A DNA stretch of 64,000 nucleotides from Escherichia coli (GTDB taxonomy: Bacteria > Pseudomonadota > Gammaproteobacteria > Enterobacterales > Enterobacteriaceae), in NCBI RefSeq assembly GCF_030384885.1, contig NZ_CP128615.1; one strand, given 5' to 3'. How positions within the stretch are numbered: position 1 is the stretch's first letter; every line of letters begins with the position of its first letter. This document shows positions 5,803 to 43,102 of this stretch, piece after piece. The notes under the pieces were generated by a model. It had not been told where the DNA came from and did not search any database. It saw nothing but the letters and a program-made list of their open reading frames with translations. The position numbers and the translations under genes were made by a program.

Positions 5803-5909
5803 GGACAGAAACTGTCTACCGGAGCGTGGTCACTCCACATTTAAAGAAACGAGCTTTGGTAAACATACCTGTAATGACTCCATAAAATGGCGCGTCAAAC
5901 GACACCTAA

Positions 5910-7985: not shown

Positions 7986-8001
7986 GTTTCACCTCAGCGC
8001 C

Positions 8002-14342: not shown

Positions 14343-14357
14343 ATGATCTTGCGCCTC

Positions 14358-16121: not shown

Positions 16122-16137
16122 AGTTATCCGTTGCCTC

Positions 16138-19815: not shown

Positions 19816-19833
19816 TCGGGAGGCTCCCTGCTC

Positions 19834-20427
19834 TTAATTTTTTTTACCGTCTTCAGGCACAAGCTTGAAGGCGCGATAGTAGTTTTTAGATTCGATCATG
19901 CCGAAAGGATGCAAATCCCTTCCGCTATATTCACCCGGATAGAAAAGCACTAATGGCGTGCTACCCATAACGTCTTGCAGAGCACTAAGTAACTCATGTC
20001 CTCGGATAAGAGGCCACGCACTGCCTAAGCCTGACAGCAACACAAACTCAAGTTCTGATGGCTTATATTTGTCCGCGATATACCTTGCCACTTTCTCTTG
20101 GCTCAGAGGCCCGGCTAGTGTTTTTCGAAGGCCATCAACACCGACTTGCAATTCACGCTGGCAAGCTCGGTCGAAAAGGCCTCGCTCCTCAAGCATATCT
20201 ATCAAGACTTCAAAAATATTGAGATGGACAAAGCGGTAACCACGCTTGTTGAGTTTTTCGTCAACGTGCTTAATGTGCTCTCGTACAAGCAGTTCATACT
20301 TGGCTGGATAGTCAAATACCCAAAATCCAATTTCATTGCCCAAGCCATCGTTTTTCAAAAACTTAGGGCTTTCAATTCGTTCCAGTATCAGATCAAGCCT
20401 GGTCTGAAGAGCCTTCATATTGTGCAC
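19834..20427 (-). CDS. brxB: BREX protein BrxB (DUF1788)
   Basis: 197 aa; overlaps brxA by 13 bp; size and position as in type 1 BREX. Confidence 0.8.
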   Translation of the reverse strand: MHNMKALQTRLDLILERIESPKFLKNDGLGNEIGFWVFDYPAKYELLVREHIKHVDEKLNKRGYRFVHLNIFEVLIDMLEERGLFDRACQRELQVGVDGLRKTLAGPLSQEKVARYIADKYKPSELEFVLLSGLGSAWPLIRGHELLSALQDVMGSTPLVLFYPGEYSGRDLHPFGMIESKNYYRAFKLVPEDGKKN

Positions 20428-21014
20428 TCCATTACCTCAATCAAATCTTCCCGGCCCAGACGAACTAACCAGTCTTTAACTTCTGGCATTAGGTAAACAG
20501 GTTGTATTTTCTTTGTCCTGCTATCACTCAGGTAGCCACTATCAACCAGTGCCTTAATTGCGTTGTTACCCATTTTTTTGACAGTTGAGTCAGAAAAACC
20601 GCCAAGCTCAGCATATGCCCGCACTCTCGTGTCATAAAACTCAGACCATGCATCAGCGGTTAAAGAGGGTTTATAGGTGCGACGAGCTTCGGCTAAGGTA
20701 AGTCGCATAAAATAAGCGACAACCGGAGAATGAATGAGTAATGACATCATCAGCATTTGGACATAGGCACGTTCACTCGCGGCTAAAAGATCAGTCATAA
20801 ACTCATCACCCAGGCCTTCAATACGCCAACGGATTGTTCTGGCATAACGAATAGCCGTCTGACCGGATTTTTTCTGAAGAACATTTTGCTCAACGATCAG
20901 CGACTTCCACTCATCTTCTGGAAGTTTTTTCAATAGCGATTCTGCGATTATTCTAGATTCAGTTATCAATAAACTGCCTCCGATAAGATCGCCTAAATAT
21001 TCTTTTATATTCAT
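20415..21014 (-). CDS. brxA: BREX protein BrxA (DUF1819)
   Basis: 199 aa; first structural gene of the BREX block. Confidence 0.8.
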   Translation of the reverse strand: MNIKEYLGDLIGGSLLITESRIIAESLLKKLPEDEWKSLIVEQNVLQKKSGQTAIRYARTIRWRIEGLGDEFMTDLLAASERAYVQMLMMSLLIHSPVVAYFMRLTLAEARRTYKPSLTADAWSEFYDTRVRAYAELGGFSDSTVKKMGNNAIKALVDSGYLSDSRTKKIQPVYLMPEVKDWLVRLGREDLIEVMECTI

Positions 21015-21023
21015 AAATTCATC

Positions 21024-21950
21024 TCACGATTCGCTATATCCAGGAGCGAGTGCAGCATTGTCAACGCCGTATAGTGCTTCTGGATTTTTAAGTGCTAAAT
21101 GGAACTCTCGCCCATTGCTCTTACAATTCTTTGAACAATCGATATTCCATAAACGCAGTAAATATCCAGCGAACGCAGCTCTTATCTCTACACGCAACCT
21201 ATTGTTTTCCATTGCGTAGTCCATCGATACAGCTTCTGGATGTGCTAGTTTTGGATGAGGTATCAGCTCTAGCTCAACGATTCGGTTCCATTGCTTATCC
21301 CACTGAAGAGTCTCAACTTCGTCGTTAACCTCATCCTCTAACAACTCAACTTCACTTATTCTGGTTAAAACAAAATCCCTAAATTCTCTAAGCTTTCTAT
21401 CGAATGCTCGGACATGCCATCTCAAGCCATTGTCAATCAGGGTATGAGGAACTATTTGCCTGCTCCCATGACCACTCGACAATGAGGTGTACTCAATATT
21501 AATCACAGCGCGCTTATGTATGGCTTCACTAATAGCCGCTACAACTTCCAATTTCGGCTTATTGAGATGGAATGGTGCTTCACAAGCCATAGGTGGCCTG
21601 GCCTTGCCAAGAAAGCCATCACCGAACCCTTGGCTTATCGTCGCAAGAGTTCGAACAACGTCATAATCAAACAACGGCTGGAATGCGCTCGTCTTCAAGT
21701 GCACTCTGCGCTTTTCGTCATACATAACGTTGTTAGGAGCCAACTCTTTGTACCGCGCAAAATCTTGTGTTGCCACAGACGGCGCTACGCTAAATCGCTC
21801 GGTTAAATAACTACGCCCAGCTTCACCTTTAAATAACAAAGTGAAATCAATATGAGCGAGTCGTTCTCTCTGTGCTTGGCTAAGCTCTTCAAGTCCAGTG
21901 TTGTCTTGCACTGTCAGCCTCTCAATCCATCTGGGACAAGCCCTAATCAT
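21024..21950 (-). CDS. brxR: WYL-domain transcriptional regulator BrxR (wHTH-WYL)
   Basis: 308 aa; N-terminal winged-HTH-like segment and WYL-like core (QIVPHTLIDNGLRWHVRAFD); directly upstream of brxA. True start may be an internal Met. Confidence 0.7.
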   Translation of the reverse strand: MIRACPRWIERLTVQDNTGLEELSQAQRERLAHIDFTLLFKGEAGRSYLTERFSVAPSVATQDFARYKELAPNNVMYDEKRRVHLKTSAFQPLFDYDVVRTLATISQGFGDGFLGKARPPMACEAPFHLNKPKLEVVAAISEAIHKRAVINIEYTSLSSGHGSRQIVPHTLIDNGLRWHVRAFDRKLREFRDFVLTRISEVELLEDEVNDEVETLQWDKQWNRIVELELIPHPKLAHPEAVSMDYAMENNRLRVEIRAAFAGYLLRLWNIDCSKNCKSNGREFHLALKNPEALYGVDNAALAPGYSES

Positions 21951-22269
21951 TTAAAACTAGGAAGCCATCGATTGAATGCCATCAAGCAACCTACTTTTTT
22001 TCATTAGGTATCATAGTATCAACAAGTCGTCTTGTTGGCTATAAAAATTGGCTTGACGTTGTTCGAATGTTTCTTTTCTGGCCTTGATAGAAGCTCACGC
22101 TGGAATGCCAACTGACGCAATTCATTCTCTCGAACACGCCTAGCAACTTCTGCCTGGGCTGGTAGCTGATCTTGACCCTCCATCTCCGAACAGCTTTTGT
22201 ATCTTAAGTTAACGATGTCCGCTGCCGCCGGTATTCCCTCGGGGAGTGATATCCCAGCGCGCTGTGCGG

Positions 22270-23486: not shown

Positions 23487-24543
23487 GGCTTTGTTGAATA
23501 AATCGAACTTTTGCTGAGTTGAAGGATCAGATCACGCATCCTCCCGACAACACAGACCATTCCGTGGCAAAGCAAAAGTTCAGAATCACCAACTGGTCCA
23601 CCTACAACAAAGCTCTCATCAACCGTGGCTCCCTCACTTTCTGGCTGGATGATGGGGCGATTCAGGCCTGGTATGAGTCGGCAACGCCTTCATCACGGGG
23701 AAGGCCCCAGCGCTATTCTGACCTTGCCATCACGACTGTGCTGGTCATTAAACGCGTATTCAGGCTGACCCTGCGCGCTGCGCAGGGCTTTATTGATTCC
23801 ATTTTTACACTGATGAATGTTCCGTTGCGCTGCCCGGATTACAGCTGTGTCAGCAGGCGGGCAAAGTCGGTTAACGTCAGTTTCAAAACGTTCACCCGGG
23901 GTGAAATCGCGCATCTGGTGATTGATTCCACCGGGCTGAAGGTCTTTGGTGAAGGCGAGTGGAAAGTCAAAAAGCATGGCCAGGAACGCCGTCGTATATG
24001 GCGAAAGTTGCATCTGGCAGTTGACAGCAACACACATGAAATCATCTGTGCAGACCTGTCGCTGAACAATGTGACGGACTCAGAAGCCTTCCCGGGTCTT
24101 ATCCGGCAGACTCACAGAAAAATCAGGGCAGCATCGGCAGACGGCGCTTACGACACCCGGCTCTGTCACGATGAACTGCGGCGTAAGAAAATCAGCGCGC
24201 TTATCCCTCCCCGAAAAGGTGCGGGTTACTGGCCCGGTGAATATGCAGACCGTAACCGTGCAGTGGCTAATCAGCGAATGACCGGGAGTAATGCGCGGTG
24301 GAAATGGACAACAGATTACAACCGTCGCTCGATAGCGGAAACGGCGATGTACCGGGTAAAACAGCTGTTCGGGGGTTCACTGACGCTGCGTGACTACGAT
24401 GGTCAGGTTGCGGAGGCTATGGCCCTGGTACGAGCGCTGAACAAAATGACGAAAGCAGGTATGCCTGAAAGCGTGCGTATTGCCTGAAAACACAACCCGC
24501 TACGGGGGAGACTTACCCGAAATCTGATTTATTCAACAAAGCC
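23487..24543 (+). mobile_element. IS903 (IS5 family), intact 1057-bp copy, no target-site duplication
   Basis: Terminal inverted repeats GGCTTTGTTGAATAAATC at both ends; flanking 9-mers differ (gaccgtacc vs agatggaat). Confidence 0.9.
23519..24487 (+). CDS. IS903 transposase
   Basis: 322 aa [45 protein letters not shown]... Confidence 0.9.
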
Positions 24544-24625
24544 AGATGGAATAGCCCCGCTCGGTGATTTGGCGGACAGCTTCTTCCTTAAATTCAGGGG
24601 TAAAACGTGGTGTGCCCATAGACTA
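24544..24625 (-). mobile_element. 82-bp remnant of an IS3-family element (orfA start region)
   Basis: Minus strand encodes MGTPRFTPEFKEEAVRQITERGYSI, near-identical to the orfA start at 3293; cut on both sides by IS903 and the IS407-like element. Confidence 0.5.
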
Positions 24626-25208
24626 TGACCTGCTCCCCGTTGATTAGTACACCCCGATGTTAGTAATGTCTTCATAAGCCACATGAGGACATCCCCATGA
24701 AGAAGCGTTTTTCCGACGAACAGATCATCAGTATTCTCCGCGAAGCCGAAGCTGGGGTACCCGCCCGTGAACTCTGCCGCAAGCATGCCATTTCCGATGC
24801 CACGTTTTACACCTGGCGTAAGAAGTATGGCGGTATGGAGGTGCCTGAAGTTAAGCGCCTGAAGTCGCTTGAGGAAGAGAACGCCAGACTCAAGAAGCTG
24901 CTTGCCGAAGCCATGCTGGATAAAGAGGCGCTTCAGGTGGCTCTTGGGCGAAAGTACTGACGACAGACCAGAAGCGGGAAGCCGTGATGCTGATGTGTGA
25001 TGCGACCGGTCTGTCGCAACGTCGTGCCTGCAGGCTTACAGGTTTGTCCCTGTCGACCTGCCGCTATGAGGCTCACCGTCCGGCTGCTGATGCGCATTTA
25101 TCAGGGCGCATCACTGAGCTGGCACTGGAGCGCAGGCGTTTTGGCTACCGTCGTATTTGGCAATTGCTGCGCCGTGAAGGGCTTCATGTTAATCATAAGC
25201 GCGTGTAG
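24626..25208 (+). mobile_element. IS3-family (IS407-group-like) element, 3'-truncated within orfB
   Basis: Begins TGACCTGCTCCCCGTTGATTAGTACACCCCGATG; orfA 24697-24960 and first 74 codons of orfB (24984-25208) only. Confidence 0.6.
24697..24960 (+). CDS. IS3-family (IS407-group) transposase OrfA
   Basis: MKKRFSDEQIISILREAEAGVPARELCRKHAISDATFYTWRKKYGG... Confidence 0.8.
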   Translation: MKKRFSDEQIISILREAEAGVPARELCRKHAISDATFYTWRKKYGGMEVPEVKRLKSLEEENARLKKLLAEAMLDKEALQVALGRKY

Positions 25209-25457
25209 TGATGCGGACTACGACGTGCGTTTGGTCCAGGACTGCTGCTACGACCCGGATCGGGATGCCCACGAAGCTCTGTTGCGTTCCGGGTTCGGCG
25301 GACGTGTACAGGTCGTGTAATTTTCGGGCCTCGCATGATCGCGGCCATAGCCGCAGGTGGATTGGTGCGAGGCAGGGCCAGTCCAAGTCAGGGTGCGGTC
25401 ATCGCGGCGCCTGCAACTCTCAAAAACCCATCGCCGTAGCGGAGGTCTTGTAATCGC

Positions 25458-26342
25458 ATGTCATTACGCACGCCCGATTTATTGTTCACAGCGATAGCAC
25501 CTGCCATTTGGGGCAGCACCTACATTGTCACCACCCAATACCTGCCGAACTTCTCACCGATGACGGTCGCGATGCTGCGGGCGTTGCCGGCGGGTTTATT
25601 GCTCGTGATGATCGTCCGACAGATTCCAACGGGAATCTGGTGGATGCGCATCTTCATCCTCGGCGCACTTAATATTTCGCTATTCTGGAGCTTGTTGTTT
25701 ATTTCGGTCTACCGCCTGCCGGGCGGGGTCGCGGCGACGGTAGGCGCTGTGCAGCCGCTGATGGTCGTGTTCATCTCTGCCGCTCTGCTAGGTAGCCCGA
25801 TACGATTGATGGCGGTCCTGGGGGCTATTTGCGGAACTGCGGGCGTGGCGCTGTTGGTGTTGACACCAAACGCAGCGCTAGATCCTGTCGGCGTCGCAGC
25901 GGGCCTGGCGGGGGCGGTTTCCATGGCGTTCGGAACCGTGCTGACCCGCAAGTGGCAACCTCCCGTGCCTCTGCTCACCTTTACCGCCTGGCAACTGGCG
26001 GCCGGAGGACTTCTGCTCGTTCCAGTAGCTTTAGTGTTTGATCCGCCAATCCCGATGCCTACAGGAACCAATGTTCTCGGCCTGGCGTGGCTCGGCCTGA
26101 TCGGAGCGGGTTTAACCTACTTCCTTTGGTTCCGGGGGATCTCGCGACTCGAACCTACAGTTGTTTCCTTACTGGGCTTTCTCAGCCCGGGGACCGCCGT
26201 GTTGCTAGGATGGTTGTTCTTGGATCAGACGCTGAGTGCGCTTCAAATCATCGGCGTCCTGCTCGTGATCGGGAGTATCTGGCTGGGCCAACGTTCCAAC
26301 CGCACTCCTAGGGCGCGTATAGCTTGCCGGAAGTCGCCTTGA
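25458..26342 (+). CDS. pecM: EamA/DMT-family transporter PecM-like
   Basis: 294 aa, multiple transmembrane segments; located downstream of tetA as in Tn1721. Confidence 0.8.
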   Translation: MSLRTPDLLFTAIAPAIWGSTYIVTTQYLPNFSPMTVAMLRALPAGLLLVMIVRQIPTGIWWMRIFILGALNISLFWSLLFISVYRLPGGVAATVGAVQPLMVVFISAALLGSPIRLMAVLGAICGTAGVALLVLTPNAALDPVGVAAGLAGAVSMAFGTVLTRKWQPPVPLLTFTAWQLAAGGLLLVPVALVFDPPIPMPTGTNVLGLAWLGLIGAGLTYFLWFRGISRLEPTVVSLLGFLSPGTAVLLGWLFLDQTLSALQIIGVLLVIGSIWLGQRSNRTPRARIACRKSP

Positions 26343-26373
26343 CCCGCATGGCATAGGCCTATCGTTTCCACGA

Positions 26374-27573
26374 TCAGCGATCGGCTCGTTGCCCTGCGCC
26401 GCTCCAAAGCCCGCGACGCAGCGCCGGCAGGCAGAGCAAGTAGAGGGCAGCGCCTGCAATCCATGCCCACCCGTTCCACGTTGTTATAGAAGCCGCATAG
26501 ATCGCCGTGAAGAGGAGGGGTCCGACGATCGAGGTCAGGCTGGTGAGCGCCGCCAGTGAGCCTTGCAGCTGCCCCTGACGTTCCTCATCCACCTGCCTGG
26601 ACAACATTGCTTGCAGCGCCGGCATTCCGATGCCACCCGAAGCAAGCAGGACCATGATCGGGAACGCCATCCATCCCCGTGTCGCGAAGGCAAGCAGGAT
26701 GTAGCCTGTGCCGTCGGCAATCATTCCGAGCATGAGTGCCCGCCTTTCGCCGAGCCGGGCGGCTACAGGGCCGGTGATCATTGCCTGGGCGAGTGAATGC
26801 AGAATGCCAAATGCGGCAAGCGAAATGCCGATCGTGGTCGCGTCCCAGTGAAAGCGATCCTCGCCGAAAATGACCCAAAGCGCGGCCGGCACCTGTCCGA
26901 CAAGTTGCATGATGAAGAAGACCGCCATCAGGGCGGCGACGACGGTCATGCCCCGGGCCCACCGGAACGAAGCGAGCGGGTTGAGAGCCTCCCGGCGTAA
27001 CGGCCGGCGTTCGCCTTTGTGCGACTCCGGCAAAAGGAAACAGCCCGTCAGGAAATTGAGGCCGTTCAAGGCTGCCGCGGCGAAGAACGGAGCGTGGGGG
27101 GAGAAACCGCCCATCAGCCCACCGAGCACAGGTCCCGCGACCATCCCGAACCCGAAACAGGCGCTCATGAAGCCGAAGTGCCGCGCGCGCTCATCGCCAT
27201 CAGTGATATCGGCAATATAAGCGCCGGCTACCGCCCCAGTCGCCCCGGTGATGCCGGCCACGATCCGCCCGATATAGAGAACCCAAAGGAAAGGCGCCGT
27301 CGCCATGATGGCGTAGTCGACAGCAGCGCCGGCCAGCGAGACGAGCAAGACCGGCCGCCGCCCGAAACGATCCGACAGCGCGCCCAGCACAGGTGCGCAG
27401 GCAAATTGCATCAACGCATACAGCGCCAGCAGAATGCCATAGTGGGCGGTGACGTCGTTCGAGTGAACCAGATCGCGCAGGAGGCCCGGCAGCACCGGCA
27501 TAATCAGGCCGATGCCGACAGCGTCGAGCGCGACAGTGCTCAGAATTACGATCAGGGGTCTGTTGGGTTTCAC
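26374..27573 (-). CDS. tetA: Tetracycline efflux MFS transporter TetA, class A
   Basis: VKPNRPLIVILSTVALDAVGIGLIMPVLPGLLRDL...; GTG start at 27573 (399 aa); the track ORF extends 25 codons further upstream. Confidence 0.95.
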   Translation of the reverse strand: MKPNRPLIVILSTVALDAVGIGLIMPVLPGLLRDLVHSNDVTAHYGILLALYALMQFACAPVLGALSDRFGRRPVLLVSLAGAAVDYAIMATAPFLWVLYIGRIVAGITGATGAVAGAYIADITDGDERARHFGFMSACFGFGMVAGPVLGGLMGGFSPHAPFFAAAALNGLNFLTGCFLLPESHKGERRPLRREALNPLASFRWARGMTVVAALMAVFFIMQLVGQVPAALWVIFGEDRFHWDATTIGISLAAFGILHSLAQAMITGPVAARLGERRALMLGMIADGTGYILLAFATRGWMAFPIMVLLASGGIGMPALQAMLSRQVDEERQGQLQGSLAALTSLTSIVGPLLFTAIYAASITTWNGWAWIAGAALYLLCLPALRRGLWSGAGQRADR

Positions 27574-27619
27574 GTCTGGCCTCCGGACCAGCCTCCGCTG
27601 GTCCGATTGAACGCGCGGA

Positions 27620-27672
27620 TTCTTTATCACTGATAAGTTGGTGGACATATTATGTTTATCAGTGATAAAGTG
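27620..27672. promoter_or_regulatory. tetA/tetR divergent promoter with two tet operator palindromes
   Basis: TTTATCACTGATAAG and TTTATCAGTGATAAAG palindromes in the tetA-tetR intergenic region. Confidence 0.6.
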
Positions 27673-27678
27673 TCAAGC

Positions 27679-28329
27679 ATGACAAAGTTGCAGCCGAATA
27701 CAGTGATCCGTGCCGCCCTGGACCTGTTGAACGAGGTCGGCGTAGACGGTCTGACGACACGCAAACTGGCGGAACGGTTGGGGGTTCAGCAGCCGGCGCT
27801 TTACTGGCACTTCAGGAACAAGCGGGCGCTGCTCGACGCACTGGCCGAAGCCATGCTGGCGGAGAATCATACGCATTCGGTGCCGAGAGCCGACGACGAC
27901 TGGCGCTCATTTCTGATCGGGAATGCCCGCAGCTTCAGGCAGGCGCTGCTCGCCTACCGCGATGGCGCGCGCATCCATGCCGGCACGCGACCGGGCGCAC
28001 CGCAGATGGAAACGGCCGACGCGCAGCTTCGCTTCCTCTGCGAGGCGGGTTTTTCGGCCGGGGACGCCGTCAATGCGCTGATGACAATCAGCTACTTCAC
28101 TGTTGGGGCCGTGCTTGAGGAGCAGGCCGGCGACAGCGATGCCGGCGAGCGCGGCGGCACCGTTGAACAGGCTCCGCTCTCGCCGCTGTTGCGGGCCGCG
28201 ATAGACGCCTTCGACGAAGCCGGTCCGGACGCAGCGTTCGAGCAGGGACTCGCGGTGATTGTCGATGGATTGGCGAAAAGGAGGCTCGTTGTCAGGAACG
28301 TTGAAGGACCGAGAAAGGGTGACGATTGA
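27679..28329 (+). CDS. tetR: Tetracycline repressor TetR, class A
   Basis: MTKLQPNTVIRAALDLLNEVGVDGLTTRKLAERLGVQQPALYWHF...; 216 aa from the internal Met. Confidence 0.95.
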   Translation: MTKLQPNTVIRAALDLLNEVGVDGLTTRKLAERLGVQQPALYWHFRNKRALLDALAEAMLAENHTHSVPRADDDWRSFLIGNARSFRQALLAYRDGARIHAGTRPGAPQMETADAQLRFLCEAGFSAGDAVNALMTISYFTVGAVLEEQAGDSDAGERGGTVEQAPLSPLLRAAIDAFDEAGPDAAFEQGLAVIVDGLAKRRLVVRNVEGPRKGDD

Positions 28330-28627
28330 TCAGGACCGCTGCCGGAGCGCAACCCACTCACTACAGCAGAGCCATGTAGACAACATCCCCTCCCCCTTTC
28401 CACCGCGTCAGACGCCCGTAGCAGCCCGCTACGGGCTTTTTCATGCCCTGCCCTAGCGTCCAAGCCTCACGGCCGCGCTCGGCCTCTCTGGCGGCCTTCT
28501 GGCGCTCCTGCTGCGGCGTCCGCTCGTGGGCCGTGGCGCGGGTCCGCGCGCCGGCCTCGTGCGCCTGGCGCTCGCGGGCGAGGTCCAGGGCGGCCGTCTT
28601 CACGTTCTGCCTTGCGCAGATGAGATA

Positions 28628-28665
28628 GGGGAGCCCGCAGAATTCGGAAAAAATCGTACGCTAAG
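28628..28665. repeat. Tn1721 internal 38-bp inverted repeat (end of the Tn1722 core)
   Basis: GGGGAGCCCGCAGAATTCGGAAAAAATCGTACGCTAAG; tnpA stop lies inside it. Confidence 0.8.
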
Positions 28666-31627
28666 GTTTTCCGGGCATCCGTAAGGGCCGAAACTTCCCG
28701 TCTTCCAGTCTGCGGCTCTGCCGCCAGACGTAATCGCCGGTTAGGTTGATGTGCTCCCAGCCCAGCGGCGACAGGAATTGCAGCAGCTCGCCGTCCACCG
28801 GCTTGCCGGCCTCGACCAACCCCTGGGTGGCGCGTTCCAGGTACACCGTGTTCCACAGCACGATAGCCGCCGTCACCAGGTTGAGGCCGCTGGCCCGGTA
28901 GCGCTGCTGCTCGAAGCTCCGATCCCTGATTTCCCCAAGGCGGTTGAAGAACACCGCCCTGGCCAGCGAGTTGCGCGCCTCACCTTTGTTCAGGCCGGCA
29001 TGCACGCGGCGGCGCAGTTCAACACTTTGCAGCCAGTCCAGGATGAACAGCGTGCGCTCGATCCGGCCCAGCTCGCGCAGGGCCACGGCCAGTCCGTTCT
29101 GGCGCGGGTAGCTGCCGAGCTTGCGCAGCATCAGCGAGGCGGTGACGGTGCCCTGCTTGATCGAGCTGGCCAGGCGCAGGATGTCGTCCCAGTGGGCACG
29201 CACGTGCTTGATGTTCAGGGTGCCGCCGATCAGCGGGCGCAACGTCGGGTAGGCTTGCACGCCCTGCGGCACGTACAGCTTGGTTTCGCCGAGGTCGCGG
29301 ATGCGCGGCGCGAAGCGGAAGCCTAGCAGGTGCATCAGGGCAAAGACGTGATCGGTGAAGCCGGCCGTGTCGGTGTAGTGCTCCTCGATCCGCAGGTCGG
29401 ACTCGTGGTACAGCAGGCCGTCGAGCACATAGGTGGAATCGCGGACGCCGACATTCACCACGCGGGTGCTGAACGGCGCGTACTGGTCGGAGATATGGGT
29501 ATAGAACAGCCGTCCCGGCTCGCTACCGTACTTCGGGTTGACGTGCCCGGTGCTCTCGCCCCGGCCACCCGCGCGGAAGCGCTGGCCATCGGAGGATGAG
29601 GTCGTGCCGTCGCCCCAGTGGGCGGCAAAGGCGTGGCGATACTGGTGGTTGACCAGCTCGGCCAAGGCCGCCGAATAGGTTTCGTCGCGGATGTGCCAGG
29701 CTTGCAGCCAGGACAGCTTGGCGTAGGTCAGGCCGGGGCTCGACTCGGCCATCTTGGTCAGCCCGAGGTTGATCGCATCACCGAGGATTGCGGACAGCAG
29801 CAACGTCCTGTCTTTGGCCTCGGCCCCGTCCTTCAAGTGGGTGAAGTGGCGGCTGAAGCCCGTCCAGTCGTCCACGTCCATCAGCAGTTCGGTGATCTTG
29901 ATGCGCGGCAGTAACTGGCTGGTTTGGTCGATCAGCGCCTGCGCCCGATCCGGCACCGCCGCATCCAGCGGGGTGATTTTCAGCCCTGACTCGGTGAGGA
30001 TGGCATCGGGCAGCTCGTTGTCCTTGGCCAGGCGGGTGACGGTGGCCAACTGCTCGTCCAGCAGCTGCAAACGCTCTTCCAGGTACTGGTCGCTGTTCGG
30101 GTTGATCGCCAGGGGCAGGGCCTGCTCGCGCTTGAGTGCGGCGAACTTCTCGGCCGGCAGCAGGTAGTCGTCGAAGTCGCGGAACTGCCGCGAGCCCTTG
30201 ACCCAGATGTCGCCGGAGCGCAGGGCGTTCTTCAGCTCGGACAGGGCGCAGATTTCGTAGAATTTCCGGTCGAGGCCTTCCGGGGTGATCACCAGCGGCT
30301 TCCAGCGCGGCTTGATGAAGGCCGTGGGTGCATCGGCCGGCACCTTGCGCAGGTTGTCGGCGTTCATCTCACGCAGGGTCTGCACGGCTGCCAGCACGCC
30401 TTGCGCGGCCGGCGCGGCGCGCAGTTCCAGCACCTCCAGCAAGGCCGGCGTGTAACGGCGCAGGGTGGCGAAGTTCTCGCCGACCAGGTGCAGGTGGTCG
30501 AAGCCTTCCGGCCGGGCCAGCAGCTCGGCCTCGCTGACGCTCTCGGTGAACTCGTCCCAGGGAATCACCGCCTCGATGGCGGCATAGGGGTCGCTGCCGC
30601 TTTCCTTCGCTTCCAGCAGCGCCTGGCCGATCCTGGAGTACAGGCGCACCTTGTCGTTGATCGCCTTGCCCTGCTTCTGGAACTGCTGCTGATGCTTGTG
30701 CTTCGCGCCGCTGAACAGCTTGACCAGGATGCGGTCATGCAGATCGACCAGCTCATCGATCACGGTCGCGGTGCTCTCCAGCACCACGGCGGCCAGGGTC
30801 GCGTAGCGGCGCTGCGGCTCGAACTTACCGAGGTCTTTGGGCGTCATCTGCCCACCCTCGCGGGCCAGCTTGAGCAGGCGGTTCTGGTGGATGTGCCGGC
30901 CCAGGCCTTCGGGCAAGTCCACCAACTGAAATGTCTTCAGCCGCTCGATGTGTTCCAGCATGTGCCGAGAGTTGGGTTTCAGCGGTGCCTGGCGCAGCCA
31001 GGTCAACCAGGTGATGCTGCTGCCGGCCTTGAGCTTCAACAGCTCGTCCAGCTTGGCCCGATGCGAGTCCGTGAGTGGTTCGACCAGGGCGCGGTAGACC
31101 CGCCGATTGGCTCGCGCAATGGCTTCCGAGCAGGCCCGGTCAATCACGCTCAGCGCCGGCAGGATGCGTCGTTTCTGCCGTAGGCTCTCCAGGGCCTGAC
31201 CGGCCAGCAGCAAGCCTTTGTCGGTCTGCTGGGCCAGCTCGGTTAGCTCGCGCACCAGGGCGCGGAAGTCGGACAGGCCGAACGGGGCCAGTTGCAGGTA
31301 GGTGCGCAGTTCCTGGGCATGCTCGCGACGGGTCACGTCGCGCTCGCCGTACTTTGCCCAGCTCGCCGGCTCGGCCTGGACTTGCTTCGCCACCCACAGG
31401 ATGACCGGCTCGGGCAGCTCGCTGTCGGTTCCCAGCGCGTAACCGGGGTAGCGCAGCAGGCAGAGCTGCACGGCGAAGCCGAGGCGGTTGGCGTCGCCGC
31501 GTCGCTGGCGGATCAGCGACAGGTCGGAGTCGTTGAAGGTGTAGTAGCGGATCAGGTCATCCTGGCTTTCCGGCAGCGCAAGCAGGGTGTCCCGCTCCGT
31601 GGCCGAGAGGATCAAGCGACGCGGCAT
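28661..31627 (-). CDS. tnpA: Tn21-subgroup Tn3-family transposase TnpA (Tn1721)
   Basis: 988 aa [31 protein letters not shown]... ending ...LTGDYVWRQ... Confidence 0.9.
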
Positions 31628-31630
31628 GTG

Positions 31631-32191
31631 TCAGTCGTCCGTGCGGAGGTACTGGTAGAGGGTTTCCCGGCTGATGTTGAACTCGCGGGCAAGCTGCGCC
31701 TTGGGCTCGCCGGCCGTCGCTCGCTGCCGCAGGGTAGCAGCCTGCTCATCGGACAGGGCTTTCTTGCGGCCCCGGTACGCGCCACGCTGCTTGGCCAAGG
31801 CGATGCCCTCACGCTGCCGCTCGCGGATCAGGGCGCGCTCGAACTCAGCGAAGGCCCCCATCACCGACAGCATCAGGTTGGCCATCGGCGAGTCCTCGCC
31901 AGTGAACACCAGGCCCTCCTTCAGGAACTCGATGCGCACGCCGCGCTGAGTCAGCTTCTGTACCAAGCGACGCAGGTCATCGAGGTTGCGGGCCAGCCGA
32001 TCCATGCTGTGCACCACCACTGTATCGCCTTCGCGGACGAAGCTCAGCAGCGCTTCGAGCTGGGGGCGCTGGGTGTCCTTGCCCGATGCCTTGTCGGTGA
32101 ACACCTTGCTCACCTGGGTTTGTTCCAGCTGGCGTTCCGGGTTCTGGTCAAAGCTGCTGACCCGGACGTAGCCGATGCGGTGCCCCTGCAC
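31631..32191 (-). CDS. tnpR: Serine resolvase TnpR (Tn1721)
   Basis: 186 aa MQGHRIGYVRVSSFDQNPERQLEQ... with catalytic serine region and C-terminal HTH. Confidence 0.9.
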   Translation of the reverse strand: MQGHRIGYVRVSSFDQNPERQLEQTQVSKVFTDKASGKDTQRPQLEALLSFVREGDTVVVHSMDRLARNLDDLRRLVQKLTQRGVRIEFLKEGLVFTGEDSPMANLMLSVMGAFAEFERALIRERQREGIALAKQRGAYRGRKKALSDEQAATLRQRATAGEPKAQLAREFNISRETLYQYLRTDD

Positions 32192-32499
32192 GATGTCTCC
32201 TTGGTTGAAGGCGGCTTAAGTGCACTTTCTGTTCCGTTGTGCCTCAAAGCCCATTTCTGTCAGGCTGAAATCTATAACCTTCGCGGGCATGTGTCAAAAA
32301 ATGGGAAAGCAGACTCTATTCTGACGAAGCGGCGCGCCCTGCCTGACATCAAGTTAGGGTATAGCCTAGATTGACATGCGCGATGCAACCCTTAACTTGC
32401 TTGCACCTATCGTTTCCATGCTAGCTTTATCGTAACGCTCAAGAAATTGGGCTTAATGCCGAAAACAATAAAATAAAACAGCCAACCCTTGAGGTTCTT

Positions 32500-34077
32500 A
32501 TGCGCCAGAATTTACCAGTGACGGGTCGAAACTTAGAACTCCCAAAAGATGCCAATATTCTTTCGACTACCTCCCCTCAAAGCCATATCACGTACGTTAA
32601 TCCTGACTTCATTAAAATCAGTGGTTTCACTGAGGAAGAACTATTAGGCCAGCCTCACAACATCGTAAGACACCCAGATATGCCGCCTGCTGCATTTGAG
32701 CATATGTGGAGTACATTAAAATCTGGCCGCTCATGGATGGGGCTAGTAAAAAATCGCTGTAAAAATGGCGACCACTATTGGGTAAGTGCTTATGTAACGC
32801 CAATAGCTAAGAATGGTTCGATTGTTGAATACCAGTCTGTAAGGACCAAGCCTGAACCTGAGCAGGTTTTGGCTGCGGAAAAATTATATGCTCAATTGAG
32901 AAGCGGGAAGGCCGCGAGGCCGAAATTGGCTGCTAGCTTTTCCGTGAAAATACTCTTGCTCATATGGGGTAGTATTATATCAAGCGCAATGGCTGCCGGC
33001 ATGCTTACTGATACATCAATAAGCAGCTTATTGTTAGCCACTTTAATGTCAGGAAGCTTAAGCTCTGTTAGTGTTTTGGCTATTCTCTCTCCTCTTGGAA
33101 GACTGGTTGAAAGAGCCAGGAATATTTCCAATAACCCATTAAGTCAATCCCTCTACACTGGGCGCACCGATGAGTTTGGCCAAATAGAGTTTGCTTTACG
33201 AATGATGCAAGCTGAAACAGGCGCCATAGTAGGTCGCATAGGTGATGCATCAAATCGGCTTAGCGAACACACCCGAGGCCTACTAAAGGATATTGAGTCA
33301 AGCAATGTACTTACAGTTGAGCAGCAGGCAGAGACAGATCAAATAGCAACGGCAGTAAACCAAATGGTGGCAAGCATTCAAGAGGTTGCGAGCAATGCAC
33401 AGCATGCTGCAGATGCGGCCGGAAGAGCAGACACTGAGACGGCATCTGGCCAGCGTCTGGTAGCCCACACAAGCCAGTCAATCACTGCCCTTGAAGGTGA
33501 AATTAGGCAAGCCACTCAGGTTATTCATGAGCTTGAAGGTCAAAGTAACGAGATATCAAAAGTTCTTGACGTTATACGAGGGATCGCCGAGCAAACGAAT
33601 TTGTTGGCACTCAACGCAGCAATTGAGGCCGCGCGTGCTGGTGAGCAGGGGCGTGGTTTTGCTGTTGTCGCCGATGAGGTTCGCAGTCTTGCTGCTCGCA
33701 CACAGCAATCGACAACGGATATTCAAAGCATGATCAGCGCTCTACAAGAGCGAGCGCAATCCGCTGTTACAGTCATGGAGCAAAGTAGTCGGCAAGCGCA
33801 CACGAGTGTAGCTCACGCAGAGGAAGCAGCTACAGCTCTTGATGGAATTGGCCAACGCGTTAACGAAATTACCGACATGAACGCGCAAATAGCGACTGCG
33901 GTCGAGCAGCAGGGAGCAGTAAGTGAAGACATAAACCGCAGTATTATCAATATACGCGATGCTGCTGATACCAATGTACAGACCGGGCAGAATAATTTGC
34001 AAAGTGCGAAATCTGTCGCTCAGTTAACTAGCGCTCTGAGCGAACTGGCAAAACAGTTTTGGGAAAAACGAGGATAA
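32500..34077 (+). CDS. Methyl-accepting chemotaxis-like protein (Tn1721 orfI / mcp)
   Basis: 525 aa with PAS-like N-terminus, two hydrophobic segments and a C-terminal MCP signalling domain ([30 protein letters not shown]). Confidence 0.8.
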
Positions 34078-34228
34078 CGCTTTTCAGTATCTCGACAGGG
34101 ATAACTTACTTTACCATCGGTTATCCCTTTTAGCCGCACAAATTTTAGCCATGGCTTTTCAGGAAGTCAGGGCTATCAGAATGGCCTTAGAAAGCCTAGT
34201 CAAAGAGCTGTCACGAGAACACCGTTAG

Positions 34229-34266
34229 CTTAGCGTACGATTTTTTCCGAATTCTGCGGTTCCCCC
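34229..34266. repeat. Tn1721 outer 38-bp terminal inverted repeat
   Basis: Reverse complement of GGGGGAACCGCAGAATTCGGAAAAAATCGTACGCTAAG. Confidence 0.8.
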
Positions 34267-34300
34267 TTAATTTCAGTATCTGTTATTACAGTTGGGTATC

Positions 34301-34372
34301 GGTGATGCTGCCAACTTACTGATTTAGTGTATGATGGTGTTTTTGAGGTGCTCCAGTGGCTTCTGTTTCTAT
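34301..34372 (+). mobile_element. IS1 left-end fragment (first 72 bp)
   Basis: GGTGATGCTGCCAACTTACTGATTTAGTGTATGATGGTG... then abuts a Tn3-family inverted repeat. Confidence 0.85.
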
Positions 34373-34806
34373 GGGGTCAGTTTGGATATCGAAAATTATT
34401 GTACGTTAAGGTCGTTTTTTGACCTTTCTACTTTAGCTGGCCTCAGCCGACGAAACTTACCGGAGGCCGGTATTCTGTTGTTTTTCCAGATGTAATCGCC
34501 TGTCAGATTGATATGCTCCCAGCCTAACGGCGACAAATGTGACAGCAGTTGCTCGTTGATCTTCACCCCTTTACGCTTCAGGGCATCGACCGCTCTTTCC
34601 ATATACACTGTATTCCACAGCGAGATAGTTGCTGTCAGCAGCGTCAGTCCACTGGCGCGGTAGCTCTGATTTTCCGGTTTACGATCCCTGATTTCACCCA
34701 GACGGTGCAGGAATACCGCGCGCGCTAGAGAGAGCTCCCATCGCTGCGCGACGGGCCCCAACCGGAGAACCAAGTTAGTTACAGCATTCAGATGAAAATT
34801 CATCAT
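34373..34806 (-). pseudogene. Tn3-family transposon end: 38-bp IR (34373-34410) plus C-terminal fragment of TnpA
   Basis: IR GGGGTCAGTTTGGATATCGAAAATTATTGTACGTTAAG; ORF fragment ...[17 protein letters not shown]...[17 protein letters not shown] matches TnpA C-termini. Confidence 0.7.
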
Positions 34807-35250
34807 AAAACCGGCGCCGGTTTGCCAGCCAGGAGCCCCTCCCCACCACTGAAAAGCGCCGCCGCCCCCGGCCGAAGGCCGGGAGTAGTGTCGCTTTTAA
34901 TGATGGGTGTTGTAACTACTCTTCGTCATCTCTGTGAGTAGTGTCGCGGTAAGTTCTGGGATACACGCTCGTAAGCGGCCCTAACGGCCCGCTAACGCGG
35001 AGATACGCCCCGACTGCGGCTGTCGCCTTGCCGGGACCACTCCGACCGCGTACAGAGGCATCTGAGCCGTTTTTAGCGGGTATAGCTTTGCAGGGAAGGG
35101 GGTGGGTGAGGCAGAACCTGTCAAAACAGCAGCCGGCTGCGCCGGGCGACGGCGCCATTTACCCGCAGTACTCCATTCAACTTCAGCTGGCGCCTCCATG
35201 CCGCTGACGCGGCATTATCTATACTTTAAGTCTGGCCACTGGAGGTAACC

Positions 35251-35335
35251 ATGTGCGGACGTTTTTCTCAGTCTATGACGCGGGAAGAGTATCTTTCTCT
35301 CCTCGCCAATGAAGCCGATCGAAATATTGCCTACG
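35251..35335 (+). pseudogene. N-terminal fragment of an SRAP (YedK/HMCES-like) peptidase gene, truncated by IS903
   Basis: MCGRFSQSMTREEYLSLLANEADRNIAY; the MCGRF N-terminus is the SRAP hallmark; cut at the IS903 end. Confidence 0.5.
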
Positions 35336-35463
35336 GGCTTTGTTGAATAAATCAGATTTCGGGTAAGTCTCCCCCGTAGCGGGTTGTGTTTTCAGGCAAT
35401 ACGCACGCTTTCAGGCATACCTGCTTTCGTCATTTTGTTCAGCGCTCGTACCAGGGCCATAGC
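35336..35463 (-). mobile_element. IS903 right-end segment (part of an IS903 copy split by Tn5393)
   Basis: 128 bp identical to the last 128 bp of IS903 in reverse orientation; continues at 42169-43102. Confidence 0.85.
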
Positions 35464-35496
35464 GGGGTCGTTTGCGGGAGGGGGCGGAATCCTACG

Positions 35497-38382
35497 CTAA
35501 GGCTTTGGCCAGCGATATTCTCCGGTGAGATTGATGTGTTCCCATCCGAGCGGCGAAACATGGGCCAAGAGATCGGGCGATAGCAGCTTTCCATCGCGTT
35601 TCTGGTTTGCAACGACCTCGCCGAGCTTCATGGTGTTCCAGAAGATGATGATGGCGGCGAGCAGATTCATGCCGGCGATGCGGTAATGCTGGCCTTCGGC
35701 GGAACGGTCGCGGATTTCACCGCGGCGGTGGAAGCTGATTGCCCGCTTCAGCGCATGATGAGCTTCGCCTTTGTTGAGCCCGATCTGGGCACGCCGTTGG
35801 AGTTCGGCATCCAGAATCCAGTCGATCATGAACAGGGTGCGCTCGACGCGACCGACTTCCCGCAGGGCTGTCGCGAGCTCGTTCTGCCGCGGATAGGAGG
35901 CGAGTTTCCGCAGAATCTGGCTTGGCGCGACGGTCCCGGCAGCAATGGTGGCGGCGATGCGCAGGATGTCGGGCCAATTGCGCTCGATCATGGCTTGGTT
36001 GACCTTTCCGCCGATCAACGCTCGCAGGTGCGCCGGGGCGGCCGACGGATTGAACGCGTAGAGCCGTTTGGATGGCAGGTCGCGGATGCGCGGAGCGAAC
36101 CGGTAGCCGAGAATGGCACATGCGGCAAAGACGTGATCGGTGAAGCCGCCCGTGTCGGTGAACTGCTCGCGGATATGGCGTCCAGCATCGTTCATCAGCA
36201 GGCCATCGAGGATGTAAGGCGCTTCGCTTGCCGTTGCAGGAATCACCTGGGTTGCGAACGGCGCATATTGGTCGGAGACGTGGCTATAGGCTTTCAGGCC
36301 CGGGGTATTGCCATATTTCGCGTTGACCAGGTTCATGGCCTCACCTTGCTCTGTAGCGACGAAGAACTGTCCGTCGCTCGAAGCCGACGTGCCCATGCCC
36401 CAGAACCGGGCCATGGGTAACGCTGCCTGTGCCTCGACCACCATGGCCAGCGCCCGGTCATAGGCTTCGCCCTCGACATGCCACCGTCCAATGCGGATCA
36501 ATTCCCAGAAGGTGTGGGTGTTTGTCGCATCCGCCATTTTGCGCAAGCCGAGGTTGATCCCTTCCGCCAAGATAACGTTCATTAGCCCGATCCGGTCAGC
36601 GCAGGGTGCTCCTGTGCGCAGATGGGTGAACGCTTCGGTGAAGCCGGTCGCCGCATCCACCTCCAGCAGGAGATCGGTGATGCGCGTGGGCGGGATCTGC
36701 TTGTAGAGATCGAGCACCAGATCTTCGGCGCCTGTCGGCGCGGCGGCTTCGAGTTTCTCGATATGCAGAACGCCGTTTTCAATCGACCCGCCCGGGATCG
36801 TGCCTGCGCGAGCGGCACGGCCAAGCTCGCGCAACCGCATGTCGAGGCGAGCTTGCCGGTCTGCCAGCCATTCCTCCGGCCGCAATGGCACAGCGAGACG
36901 ACCGCCTTCCGCGATGGATTGTGCCGGAACGAGTGCGTGTTTCAGATCGCCATAGCGCCGGGACCTAGTAAGCCAGACATCTCCGGAGCGGAACGCATCG
37001 CGCAGATGGAACAGCACCGCGATCTCCCATAGGCGAGCGTCGCCAGCCCTCTGGGCCCGAAGGTGGCGATGCCATTTCGAGCTGGGCCGCAAGAAGCTGG
37101 TCATCGCGGCATCGTTCAAACCGGTACGAAGGGCCGTCACCGCTTCCAGAAGCGGCAGTGCAACGGGCGCAGCTCGCAGATCGAGCAGGCGCAACATGCG
37201 TGGAGCGTATCGGCGGAAGCGGTGATAACCGTCGAGCACATGATTGAGCGGATCGTCGGCCATGGTGGCGGTCAGCCTGGTTGCCATTGCAACAAGGGTT
37301 TTTAAGCCGTCCCACCCTGACCCACTCGCGATGACATCGCCCAGCGGCTGGCCATCATCCTGTGCATCGACCAGGGCGCCCCCGATCTCGGCGAAGGATT
37401 TCAGGGTGTCACGCACCACCCCCGCTTCGTCTGCGACCTTTGCATGGCAAATACGCTCCGAAGCACGGTAGAGACGGCCGACGATCCGGTCGTGGGTTTC
37501 GACCACTGCGTCGGCCAACATCGCCTGCCATTCCGAGACGCAAACAGCCAAGATCGCAAGCCGCCTGTCCTCCGGGAGATCGCGCATGCCGTCGGCATAA
37601 TACCGTTCACCCTGCCTGCGCAGACGAGTCACCCGATGGGCAGGAACGCCGGCAAGCAGATCCTCGGGGAGATCGATGCGTTGCAGATATTCGAGCCGGT
37701 CGAGCAGCCGGTTGGCCGACGAAGAGTTCGAGCCAGGCTCGAACTGGCGCAGCCACACAAAACGGGTCACCCGATCATCAGCCGTCTCCTCGAGCAATGC
37801 CAGCAACTGTTCTCGGATCGACATAGGCAGCCGACTGGCGATCCTCGTCTCGATGCGTCGCTCGGCATCGACGAGAGCCGCGGCACAAAGCCGCTCGATC
37901 GTGGATGTCGCGGGAAGGACAGTGCGGGTGCGTCGGCACTCGGCTACGAAGCGACGGGCGATATCCTCGTTCGACACCGCCATCTCGGCTTCTCGGAACA
38001 ACCATTCCTTCAGCTCGCTCGCACCACGTCCGGAGAAGGTGCGGAAGCCGTAGAGCCCCCGTAACTCGGCAAGATGCTCGTGCCGTGTTTCCTCGCGGGC
38101 AGCATAGTCTACGAGATCGTCGGCACCCAGGCCAAGCTGCGCTCCGATAAATTCGATGACCTCTGCAGGGATCAGTTCGCCTGGAGCCAGCACCCGGCCG
38201 GGATAGCGCAGGACACACAATTGCAGGGCGAAGCCGAACCTGTTGTGAGCGCGCCGACGCAGCCTGATATGCCCAAGGTCTTCATCACTCAGCGTATAGT
38301 GCTTGAGCAAATCCGTCTGTGAAGTCGGCAAGCGCAACAGCGCGTCTTTCTGCCGATCGGTTAGAGTGACGCGACGCGGCAT
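35497..38382 (-). CDS. tnpA: Tn3-family transposase TnpA (Tn5393)
   Basis: 961 aa MPRRVTLTDRQKDALLRLPTSQTDLLKHYTLSDEDLG... Confidence 0.9.
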   Translation of the reverse strand: MPRRVTLTDRQKDALLRLPTSQTDLLKHYTLSDEDLGHIRLRRRAHNRFGFALQLCVLRYPGRVLAPGELIPAEVIEFIGAQLGLGADDLVDYAAREETRHEHLAELRGLYGFRTFSGRGASELKEWLFREAEMAVSNEDIARRFVAECRRTRTVLPATSTIERLCAAALVDAERRIETRIASRLPMSIREQLLALLEETADDRVTRFVWLRQFEPGSNSSSANRLLDRLEYLQRIDLPEDLLAGVPAHRVTRLRRQGERYYADGMRDLPEDRRLAILAVCVSEWQAMLADAVVETHDRIVGRLYRASERICHAKVADEAGVVRDTLKSFAEIGGALVDAQDDGQPLGDVIASGSGWDGLKTLVAMATRLTATMADDPLNHVLDGYHRFRRYAPRMLRLLDLRAAPVALPLLEAVTALRTGLNDAAMTSFLRPSSKWHRHLRAQRAGDARLWEIAVLFHLRDAFRSGDVWLTRSRRYGDLKHALVPAQSIAEGGRLAVPLRPEEWLADRQARLDMRLRELGRAARAGTIPGGSIENGVLHIEKLEAAAPTGAEDLVLDLYKQIPPTRITDLLLEVDAATGFTEAFTHLRTGAPCADRIGLMNVILAEGINLGLRKMADATNTHTFWELIRIGRWHVEGEAYDRALAMVVEAQAALPMARFWGMGTSASSDGQFFVATEQGEAMNLVNAKYGNTPGLKAYSHVSDQYAPFATQVIPATASEAPYILDGLLMNDAGRHIREQFTDTGGFTDHVFAACAILGYRFAPRIRDLPSKRLYAFNPSAAPAHLRALIGGKVNQAMIERNWPDILRIAATIAAGTVAPSQILRKLASYPRQNELATALREVGRVERTLFMIDWILDAELQRRAQIGLNKGEAHHALKRAISFHRRGEIRDRSAEGQHYRIAGMNLLAAIIIFWNTMKLGEVVANQKRDGKLLSPDLLAHVSPLGWEHINLTGEYRWPKP

Positions 38383-38507
38383 ACATGTTCCTTTTTCAAA
38401 ATCTGATAGCGTTCAAGACGCTTTGTTTATGAAGCTGGTTGAGATACATTTCCAGAGGTCAATGCAATCGTGGCCGAAGCGCCGCCTCAAACCAACGTTT
38501 GTGATAC

Positions 38508-39122
38508 ATGCTGATCGGATATGCCCGCGTCTCCAAAGCCGATGGCTCGCAGTCTCTCGACCTGCAGCACGACGCCTTGCGCGCCGCAGGTGTCGAACGG
38601 GACAATATCTATGATGATCTTGCTTCCGGCGGTCGTGATGATCGCCCTGGCTTGACTGCCTGCCTCAAGTCATTGCGTGACGGCGATGTGCTGGTGGTCT
38701 GGAAGCTCGATCGCCTCGGACGATCGCTTGCCCATCTGGTCAACACGGTGAAGGAGCTGTCAGACCGCAAGATCGGCCTGCGGGTTCTGACTGGAAAGGG
38801 CGCTCAGATCGACACCACGACTGCGTCCGGTCGCATGGTGTTCGGAATCTTCGCCACCTTGGCCGAGTTCGAGCGGGATCTGATCCGAGAGCGCACCATG
38901 GCGGGTCTCGCCTCCGCGAGAGCGCGCGGTCGCAAGGGCGGACGAAAATTCGCGCTCACCAAAGCTCAGGTGCGTCTCGCGCAAGCCGCCATGGCCCAGC
39001 GCGATACTTCAGTTTCCGATCTCTGCAAGGAACTCGGCATCGAGCGCGTCACTCTCTACCGATATGTCGGTCCCAAAGGCGAGCTCAGAGACCATGGAAA
39101 GCATGTTCTCGGACTTACGTAG
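38508..39122 (+). CDS. tnpR: Serine resolvase TnpR (Tn5393)
   Basis: 204 aa MLIGYARVSKADGSQSLDLQHDALRAAGV... Confidence 0.9.
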   Translation: MLIGYARVSKADGSQSLDLQHDALRAAGVERDNIYDDLASGGRDDRPGLTACLKSLRDGDVLVVWKLDRLGRSLAHLVNTVKELSDRKIGLRVLTGKGAQIDTTTASGRMVFGIFATLAEFERDLIRERTMAGLASARARGRKGGRKFALTKAQVRLAQAAMAQRDTSVSDLCKELGIERVTLYRYVGPKGELRDHGKHVLGLT

Positions 39123-39165
39123 TGGACTTGCCTCGGTTTCGTTCCGGTCTTTTTGAGAGCATTAT

Positions 39166-39462
39166 TTGTTATCAAGGAGACCATATATGTCATTAAAGCA
39201 TAGTGATGAATTTAAGCGTGATGCAGTTCGCATAGCACTCACTAGTGGCTTAACACGCCGTCAAGTTGCGTCAGATTTAAGTATTGGGCTTTCCACGCTT
39301 GGGAAATGGATCGCATCAATTTCCGATGAAACTAAAATTCCTACCCAAGACACTGATCTTCTGCGTGAGAATGAACGTTTACGCAAAGAGAACCGTATCC
39401 TTCGGGAGGAGAGGGAGATATTAAAAAAGGCAGCAATATTTTTCGCAGTACAAAAGCTGTGA
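39166..39462 (+). CDS. IS1133 transposase OrfA
   Basis: ...MSLKHSDEFKRDAVRIALTSGLTRRQVASDLSIGLSTLGKWI... Confidence 0.8.
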   Translation: MLSRRPYMSLKHSDEFKRDAVRIALTSGLTRRQVASDLSIGLSTLGKWIASISDETKIPTQDTDLLRENERLRKENRILREEREILKKAAIFFAVQKL

Positions 39463-40316: not shown

Positions 40317-40422
40317 AATGAGAGATAGACCGGAACACAACCGGTGCAAGTCCATAGCAACTCGTTTCTTTTCGCAGGTTGAGCCACCTCCGCGCTTCAT
40401 CAGAAAACTGAAGGAACCTCCA

Positions 40423-42062: not shown

Positions 42063-42131
42063 ATATCAAGCGACTTCTCCTATCCCCTGGGAACACATCA
42101 ATCTTACCGGAGAATATCGTTGGCCAAAGCC

Positions 42132-43070: not shown

Positions 43071-43102
43071 CTCAGCAAAAGTTCGATTTATTCAACAAAG
43101 CC
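42169..43102 (-). mobile_element. IS903 left-end 934 bp (remainder of the IS903 copy split by Tn5393)
   Basis: Includes transposase ORF 42132-43070 whose last codons now read into the Tn5393 inverted repeat; terminal IR ends at 43102. Confidence 0.85.

Follow-up and report, generated by a model that had tools for sequence, protein, structure and literature searches.

A Tn1721 copy and its genes

The stretch of DNA analyzed here, called the window throughout, comprises 64,000 nucleotides (64 kb) of Escherichia coli contig NZ_CP128615.1, and its positions 25206–34266 hold a tetracycline resistance locus related to Tn1721. This transposon, an 11.1-kb tetracycline resistance element (Allmeier et al. 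1992, as cited in PMC7319535), is assigned to the Tn21 subgroup of the Tn3 family, and both its modular Tn1721/Tn1722 structure and the commonness of truncated copies on resistance plasmids have been described (PMC7319535). With high confidence, we read the region as a left-truncated copy of Tn1721, that is, of a Tn3-family element, with intact tet genes and an intact Tn1722 core, and consider this the best explanation of the locus as a whole. The following features were identified.

25206–34266: retained part of Tn1721, 9,061 of 11,128 bp, in the reverse of the conventional orientation, tet module to the left and Tn1722 core to the right
25210–25320, plus strand: last 36 codons and stop of an isochorismatase-family cysteine-hydrolase (nicotinamidase-like) gene, 5′ part deleted
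25458–26342, plus strand: pecM, EamA/DMT-family transporter, 294 aa (Pfam EamA, E = 1.6e-39)
26374–27573, minus strand: tet(A), tetracycline efflux pump of the MFS, 399 aa, GTG start (NCBIfam tet_MFS_A, 892.6 bits, cut-off 840)
27622–27670: two tet operators, palindromes TTATCACTGATAA and TTATCAGTGATAA, in the divergent tetA–tetR promoter region
27679–28329, plus strand: tetR(A), repressor, 216 aa (NCBIfam TetR, 305.1 bits, cut-off 265; Pfam TetR_N and TetR_C_1)
28361–28603, minus strand: relic open reading frame (ORF) of the tet module, 80 aa (WP_000844627.1 in loci L002 and L005; “transposase” or “relaxase” in RefSeq)
28628–28665, plus strand: IRRI, internal 38-bp inverted repeat and left end of Tn1722, an exact match (0 mismatches) to the Tn1721 repeat
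28661–31627, minus strand: tnpA, Tn3-family DDE transposase, 988 aa, full length (NCBIfam, 1289 bits, cut-off 500)
31631–32191, minus strand: tnpR, serine resolvase, 186 aa (Pfam Resolvase and HTH_7)
32258–32376: predicted res site, with subsites III at ~32258–32289, II at ~32292–32326 and I at ~32344–32376, central TATA at 32360–32363
32500–34077, plus strand: orfI/mcp, PAS-HAMP-MCP signalling protein, 525 aa (Pfam PAS_3, HAMP and MCPsignal)
34229–34266, minus strand: IRL, outer 38-bp inverted repeat and right end of both Tn1721 and Tn1722, with 3 mismatches to IRRI
34267–34271: TTAAT, surviving copy of the 5-bp target-site duplication, recognized from the empty site in pYLMB52a and the flanks in AR_0011

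As alignment reference we used the complete, three-repeat Tn1721 of 11,128 bp in plasmid pKP037-1 (locus L002:935–12062). By blastn and MAFFT, the window segment is 99.967% identical over its 9,061 bp to positions 2067–11128 of this copy, with two mismatches and one gap. The differences at 26304 and 32325 are private to the reference, since locus L001 and the E. coli plasmid AREA_497 (NZ_CP123330.1, loci L006 and L007) match the window where they cover these positions, and the sole departure from the common Tn1721 sequence is a missing G at 32335/6. When positions 24000–36000 were compared by megablast with 72,556 plasmids, at least 5,000 records matched; the best among the matches listed carry annotated tet(A), tetR(A), an EamA transporter, a TnAs1-family Tn3-like transposase and a PAS-domain methyl-accepting chemotaxis protein. 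The initial annotation had read the region as a tet(A) element of the Tn1721 type that is cut short next to pecM, had proposed an alignment to Tn1721 as a check and had named substantial divergence or a disrupted tnpA as grounds for abandoning the idea. The alignment found neither, the identity being 99.967% and tnpA being without changes, and together with the absence of the third repeat, IRRII, it bears the assignment out.

The terminal repeats define how much of the element is left. A search of the 64-kb window at up to three mismatches returned exactly two copies of the 38-bp Tn1721 repeat (chance expectation 0.00), namely IRRI and IRL, the latter identical to the outer IRL in two plasmid records that carry complete Tn1721 copies. 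A complete Tn1721 has three repeats (IRL, IRRI and IRRII); no third copy that could serve as IRRII, and no further Tn1721 repeat elsewhere in the window, was found at this threshold. Hence the element is a truncated derivative and not a complete Tn1721. The earlier statement that both the internal and the outer 38-bp repeats are present thus holds for IRRI and IRL, but only one outer repeat is there, the window having no IRRII.

The six full-length proteins (PecM, Tet(A), TetR, TnpA, TnpR and OrfI) reach the curated family cut-offs wherever such cut-offs exist. All features named in the initial annotation were recovered, at or within 3 bp of where it had placed them: ORFs, domain profiles and 15-nt palindromes account for tet(A)–tetR, the operators, pecM, full-length tnpA and tnpR and the mcp-like orfI. 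The pecM gene is nucleotide-identical to the copy in AREA_497, whose coding sequence is annotated there as WP_000058717.1, and the 80-aa relic ORF is without any Pfam or NCBIfam match. With Tet(A) and TetR(A) above their curated cut-offs and with paired operators between them, the module is a class A tetracycline efflux system. The arms of the operator palindromes, at 27622–27636 and 27656–27670, are 15 nt long and show 100% complementarity.

By analogy with the known system, TetR(A) would bind the two palindromes between the divergent tetA and tetR genes and repress both, and tetracycline would free TetR from them, upon which the MFS antiporter Tet(A) would export the drug. With both the tet genes and the region that controls them undamaged, we expect inducible efflux of tetracycline, and the host plasmid very probably confers inducible tetracycline resistance. 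The translation of tet(A) has R5, M55, V75, A84, A201, S202 and F203, which corresponds to the Tn1721-associated allele. This profile is common to the widespread tet(A) variants studied in PMC10745318, whose reference list includes a Tn1721-associated tet(A) variant, so that the allele found here carries the seven substitutions which that work ties to modestly raised tigecycline minimum inhibitory concentrations.

The truncated side and a probable history of the insertion

On the left, the element is intact through tetR, tetA and pecM and breaks off at codon −36 of the hydrolase gene, beyond which everything is missing. The loss amounts to 2,066 bp of Tn1721 and consists of IRRII, a 1,786-bp stretch that duplicates the 3′ end of tnpA, and the 5′ portion of the 393-bp hydrolase gene. 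Adjoining the break are remnants of insertion sequences (IS).

23487–24543, plus strand: complete IS903 (IS903-family transposase annotated in AR_0011 and AREA_497; terminal repeats read from the sequence)
24544–24625, minus strand: first ~25 codons of another IS3-type orfA, MGTPRFTPEFKEEAVRQITERGYSI, read from the sequence, between IS903 and the ISSen4-like remnant
24626–25207, plus strand: ISSen4-like IS3-family element, first 582 bp of ~1,220 bp, cut internally, 100% identical to the complete copy in AR_0011

The orfA stub resembles an ORF at 3293–3577. RefSeq names the larger remnant as ISSen4 family; IS1133 was considered as its identity and rejected, the complete copy in AR_0011 having no blastn match to the IS1133 of locus L001. 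At the junction (25205/25208), the ISSen4-like sequence ...GCGCGTGTA is joined to Tn1721 sequence ...TAGTGATGCGG, and the TA at 25206–25207 is common to both partners, which is the signature of an illegitimate join. The description of the pecM side as truncated, with an IS3-family remnant next to it, is therefore correct. The fragment at 25210–25320, which had been regarded as unidentified and as part of what replaced the lost end, needs a different reading. It gives a weak Pfam Isochorismatase match (profile positions 136–164), the full 393-bp cysteine-hydrolase gene is annotated upstream of pecM in the complete Tn1721 copies of loci L001 and L002, and RefSeq marks a partial gene in AREA_497; on these annotations, the fragment is the 3′ end of Tn1721's own hydrolase gene and not foreign DNA.

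Each flank recurs in one other plasmid. No plasmid in PLSDB spans the left junction, and the one other record in which it occurs, base for base, is NZ_CP123330.1 of AREA_497, which was assembled independently and from a different isolate. On the right, IRL with TTAATTTCAG... next to it occurs in one other record only among PLSDB and the complete E. coli RefSeq set, that of AR_0011 (NZ_CP024857.1). Hence, no record in these two collections has both junctions, the left being confined to NZ_CP123330.1 and the right to NZ_CP024857.1.

It is a serious possibility, if not the one we favor, that either the left junction or the 1-bp deletion in res is an artefact of assembly or sequencing. The recurrence of the left junction in an independent assembly rules out an assembly artefact there and shows that the junction is real, although it has no bearing on the res base. 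The missing G, in turn, is shared with none of ~2,080 full-length plasmid matches, nor with loci L001 and L002 or AREA_497, and it sits within a G+C-rich run. It falls in the predicted spacer between subsites II and I and may be either a sequencing error or a private mutation.

At the other end, plasmid pYLMB52a has the uninterrupted site ...GATGATG TTAAT TTCAGT... with a single TTAAT, and in AR_0011 a TTAAT abuts each of IRRI and IRL on the outside. Together, the empty site and the two flanking copies identify TTAAT as the 5-bp target duplication; the window keeps one copy, and its partner is known from the relatives only. Judging from these relatives, a complete Tn1721 would first have inserted at TTAAT within a plasmid region of IncR type. 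One illegitimate deletion, spanning ~8.8 kb and with 2-bp TA microhomology, would then have run from inside the ISSen4-like element to inside the hydrolase gene. It would have removed what remained of the ISSen4-like element, the genes for an ATPase and a nuclease, an IS903-like copy and one TTAAT, and would have cost Tn1721 its IRRII, the 1.8-kb duplicate of tnpA and the 5′ portion of the hydrolase gene. AR_0011 indeed retains the segment that is absent from the window (rest of the IS, AAA ATPase gene, nuclease gene and IS903-like copy, ~6.7 kb); this ~6.7 kb of backbone in the AR_0011 layout and the 2,066 bp of Tn1721 add up to the ~8.8 kb of the deletion. The simplest history we infer thus starts with a complete Tn1721 at TTAAT and splits into two independent branches; on the second, leading to AR_0011, the tet module would have been lost by recombination between the 1.8-kb direct repeats.

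Alternatively, a Tn1722 resident at TTAAT could have gained the tet module later, through a homologous crossover within Tn1722 and an illegitimate join in the ISSen4-like element. In its favor, AR_0011 has Tn1722 only, without the tet module and with TTAAT abutting IRRI, and no relative with a complete Tn1721 at the TTAAT site was found. Yet this course takes two recombination events instead of one, and recombination between the 1,786-bp direct repeats of Tn1721, seen here in the alignment, would readily yield the Tn1722 state of AR_0011. Direct-repeat recombination in Tn1721 can lead to loss or amplification of the tet region. We thus regard later acquisition as quite improbable.

We give hardly any credence to the third alternative, that the tet genes are mobile as cargo of a Tn903-like composite transposon bounded by IS903: besides the complete IS903 at 23487–24543 there are inverted copies at 35336–43102 (split by Tn5393) and 44125–45182, but no matching 9-bp duplications were found flanking the IS903 copies, for want of which this candidate was rejected, and the same copies occupy the same places in relatives without the tet module.

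Three points weigh against the truncated-Tn1721 account as we have given it. The reference is a complete copy from a plasmid record rather than X61367, the original entry; if real, the 1-bp deletion in res could impair cointegrate resolution; and the AR_0011 copy has been rearranged by IS26 and is a res-site hybrid, so that the complete-Tn1721 ancestor at TTAAT is inferred, not observed.

The Tn1722 core and mobility

Positions 28628–34266 (5,639 bp) form the Tn1722 core, in which IRRI and IRL, in inverted orientation, enclose tnpA, tnpR and res. The core thereby has what makes a unit transposon: paired inverted 38-bp ends, a full-length DDE transposase and a serine resolvase. TnpA matches the Pfam profiles DUF4158 and DDE_Tnp_Tn3, the latter over 1–389 of 389 positions, and its gene shows zero nucleotide differences from locus L002 or AREA_497, where the coding sequence is annotated as WP_001138014.1. 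Likewise, tnpR is without nucleotide differences from the reference copies, and its translation contains YVRVSS, which we take to be the motif where related serine resolvases have their catalytic serine. The orfI coding sequence, annotated as WP_001323889.1 in L002, AREA_497 and AR_0011, is nucleotide-identical to those of L002 and AREA_497.

The limits of the res subsites were drawn from TGTCA/TGACA half-sites and from the point just after 32349 where the identity to AR_0011 switches, from ~80–89% on the left to 100%. This switch supports the predicted crossover site. In AR_0011, 64714–65233 (window 31936–32349) is a different Tn21-type tnpR/res (~80–89% identity) cut by IS26, while the mcp side is identical to Tn1721.

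Judged from sequence, the Tn1722 core looks transposition-competent, as had been proposed: IRRI, IRL, tnpA and tnpR are undisturbed, and full competence is qualified only slightly, by the private 1-bp deletion in res. Tn1722 would transpose replicatively via a cointegrate, TnpR resolving it at res, and would leave a 5-bp duplication. The tet module (25206–28627) lies outside this unit and, with IRRII lost, is no longer movable by the element's own transposase; it would now travel only with the plasmid or through recombination, and only Tn1722 itself should still be able to move. By losing one end, the transposon has thus locked its resistance genes to the plasmid.

The comparison with AREA_497 gives circumstantial evidence on whether the core has been active since. 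Positions 34997–67020 of AREA_497 and 2244–34266 of the window share a 32-kb block at 99.994% identity, which holds vapBC, BREX, IS903 and the truncated Tn1721. In AREA_497 the block stops exactly at the tip of the outer IRL and is followed by IncF backbone at GAATA. Intact IncF plasmids read ...GCCG GAATA GAAG... at that position, and the left half of this intact target (locus L008) is absent from AREA_497. This block end is consistent with transposase having acted at IRL once the element was truncated, for instance in a cointegrate trimmed afterwards. An origin of AREA_497 by homologous recombination with a Tn1721 already present at the IncF GAATA site was considered and set aside, as the junction was not found in any plasmid of PLSDB; even so, an unsampled Tn1721 copy may have served as the partner in such a recombination. 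In its full form, the proposal would be that Tn1722 was active after the truncation, that a transposase event at IRL fused the 32-kb block (vapBC, BREX type 1, IS903 and truncated Tn1721) to an IncF plasmid, and that AREA_497 is the product of an imperfectly resolved and trimmed cointegrate. We consider this rather unlikely. If true, a crippled resistance transposon would have carried a phage-defence island between replicons.

Two further segments of the window resemble AREA_497. Positions 58420–58933 are a second copy of the vapB upstream region, 89.8% identical, and 60428–64000 contain segments 95–99% identical to an AREA_497 region reaching the start of that record, where the RepB initiator gene begins. 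On these similarities, sharing between the source plasmid and AREA_497 seems to extend beyond the BREX/tet block, and the source plasmid may be multi-replicon.

Surroundings and comparison with known elements

To the right of Tn1721, 34303–35335 consist of debris between this element and the IS903/Tn5393 unit: a ~70-bp IS1 end (34303–34373), the end of another Tn3-family transposon (34374–34806) with the 38-bp repeat GGGGTCAGTTTGGATATCGAAAATTATTGTACGTTAAG and a tnpA 3′ end, and the first 28 codons of an SOS-response-associated peptidase gene (35252–35335). A complete Tn5393 with IS1133 and strA–strB follows at 35464–42168 (6,705 bp) inside an IS903 copy, which it splits into 35336–35463 and 42169–43102 with a flanking 5-bp duplication, ATAGC. 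At 45673–46245, a 37-bp unit, TGGGAATCCGCCCACCTTGCCGGGCGCCGGTGCCGTG, is repeated in tandem 15.5 times with 93% matches, and AR_0011 has a longer array at the same place. AR_0011 also carries group II introns (ltrA) at two spots that are uninterrupted in the window, 3975–3979 and 39867/39868.

Defence genes lie on the other side. A complete BREX type 1 locus (WYL, DUF1819, DUF1788, brxC, DUF262, pglX, pglZ and brxL) spans ~5900–22000 on the minus strand, its annotation having been transferred from the 99.99%-identical AR_0011 and AREA_497. At 22–2156, two overlapping ORFs match Gabija GajA (profile positions 155–531 only) and GajB by PADLOC; the GajA match is probably partial because the gene is cut by the start of the window. 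These ORFs lie just left of ~2236–2246, where the window, AR_0011 and AREA_497 all diverge.

Both the ISSen4/Tn1721 junction and the insertion site at TTAAT can serve as epidemiological markers, which link the source plasmid to two sequenced E. coli plasmids, AR_0011 and AREA_497. The locus itself is an ordinary, near sequence-perfect Tn1721 lacking one end, of a kind already known, and nothing in it challenges the current understanding of Tn3-family elements.

Altogether, the window copy shares with Tn1721 its genes and their order, its sequence (99.97% over 9,061 bp), IRRI, IRL, the tetO operators and the tet(A) allele. It differs from the complete transposon in lacking the terminal 2,066 bp with IRRII, the 1,786-bp tnpA duplicate and the 5′ part of the hydrolase gene, and in a private deletion of 1 bp in res. 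The 5.6-kb unit within Tn1721 that is known as Tn1722, a cryptic “basic transposon”, is complete in 28628–34266 as IRRI–tnpA–tnpR–res–mcp–IRL; unlike a free-standing Tn1722, this core is still flanked by the tet module on one side, so that only one copy of the target duplication is left. Other truncated Tn1721 remnants (e.g. PMC7319535) likewise have tetR–tetA–pecM beside rearranged mobile-element debris in a multiresistance region. Most published remnants, however, are cut by IS26 or retain IRRII, whereas the copy described here is cut by an illegitimate join inside an ISSen4-like element.

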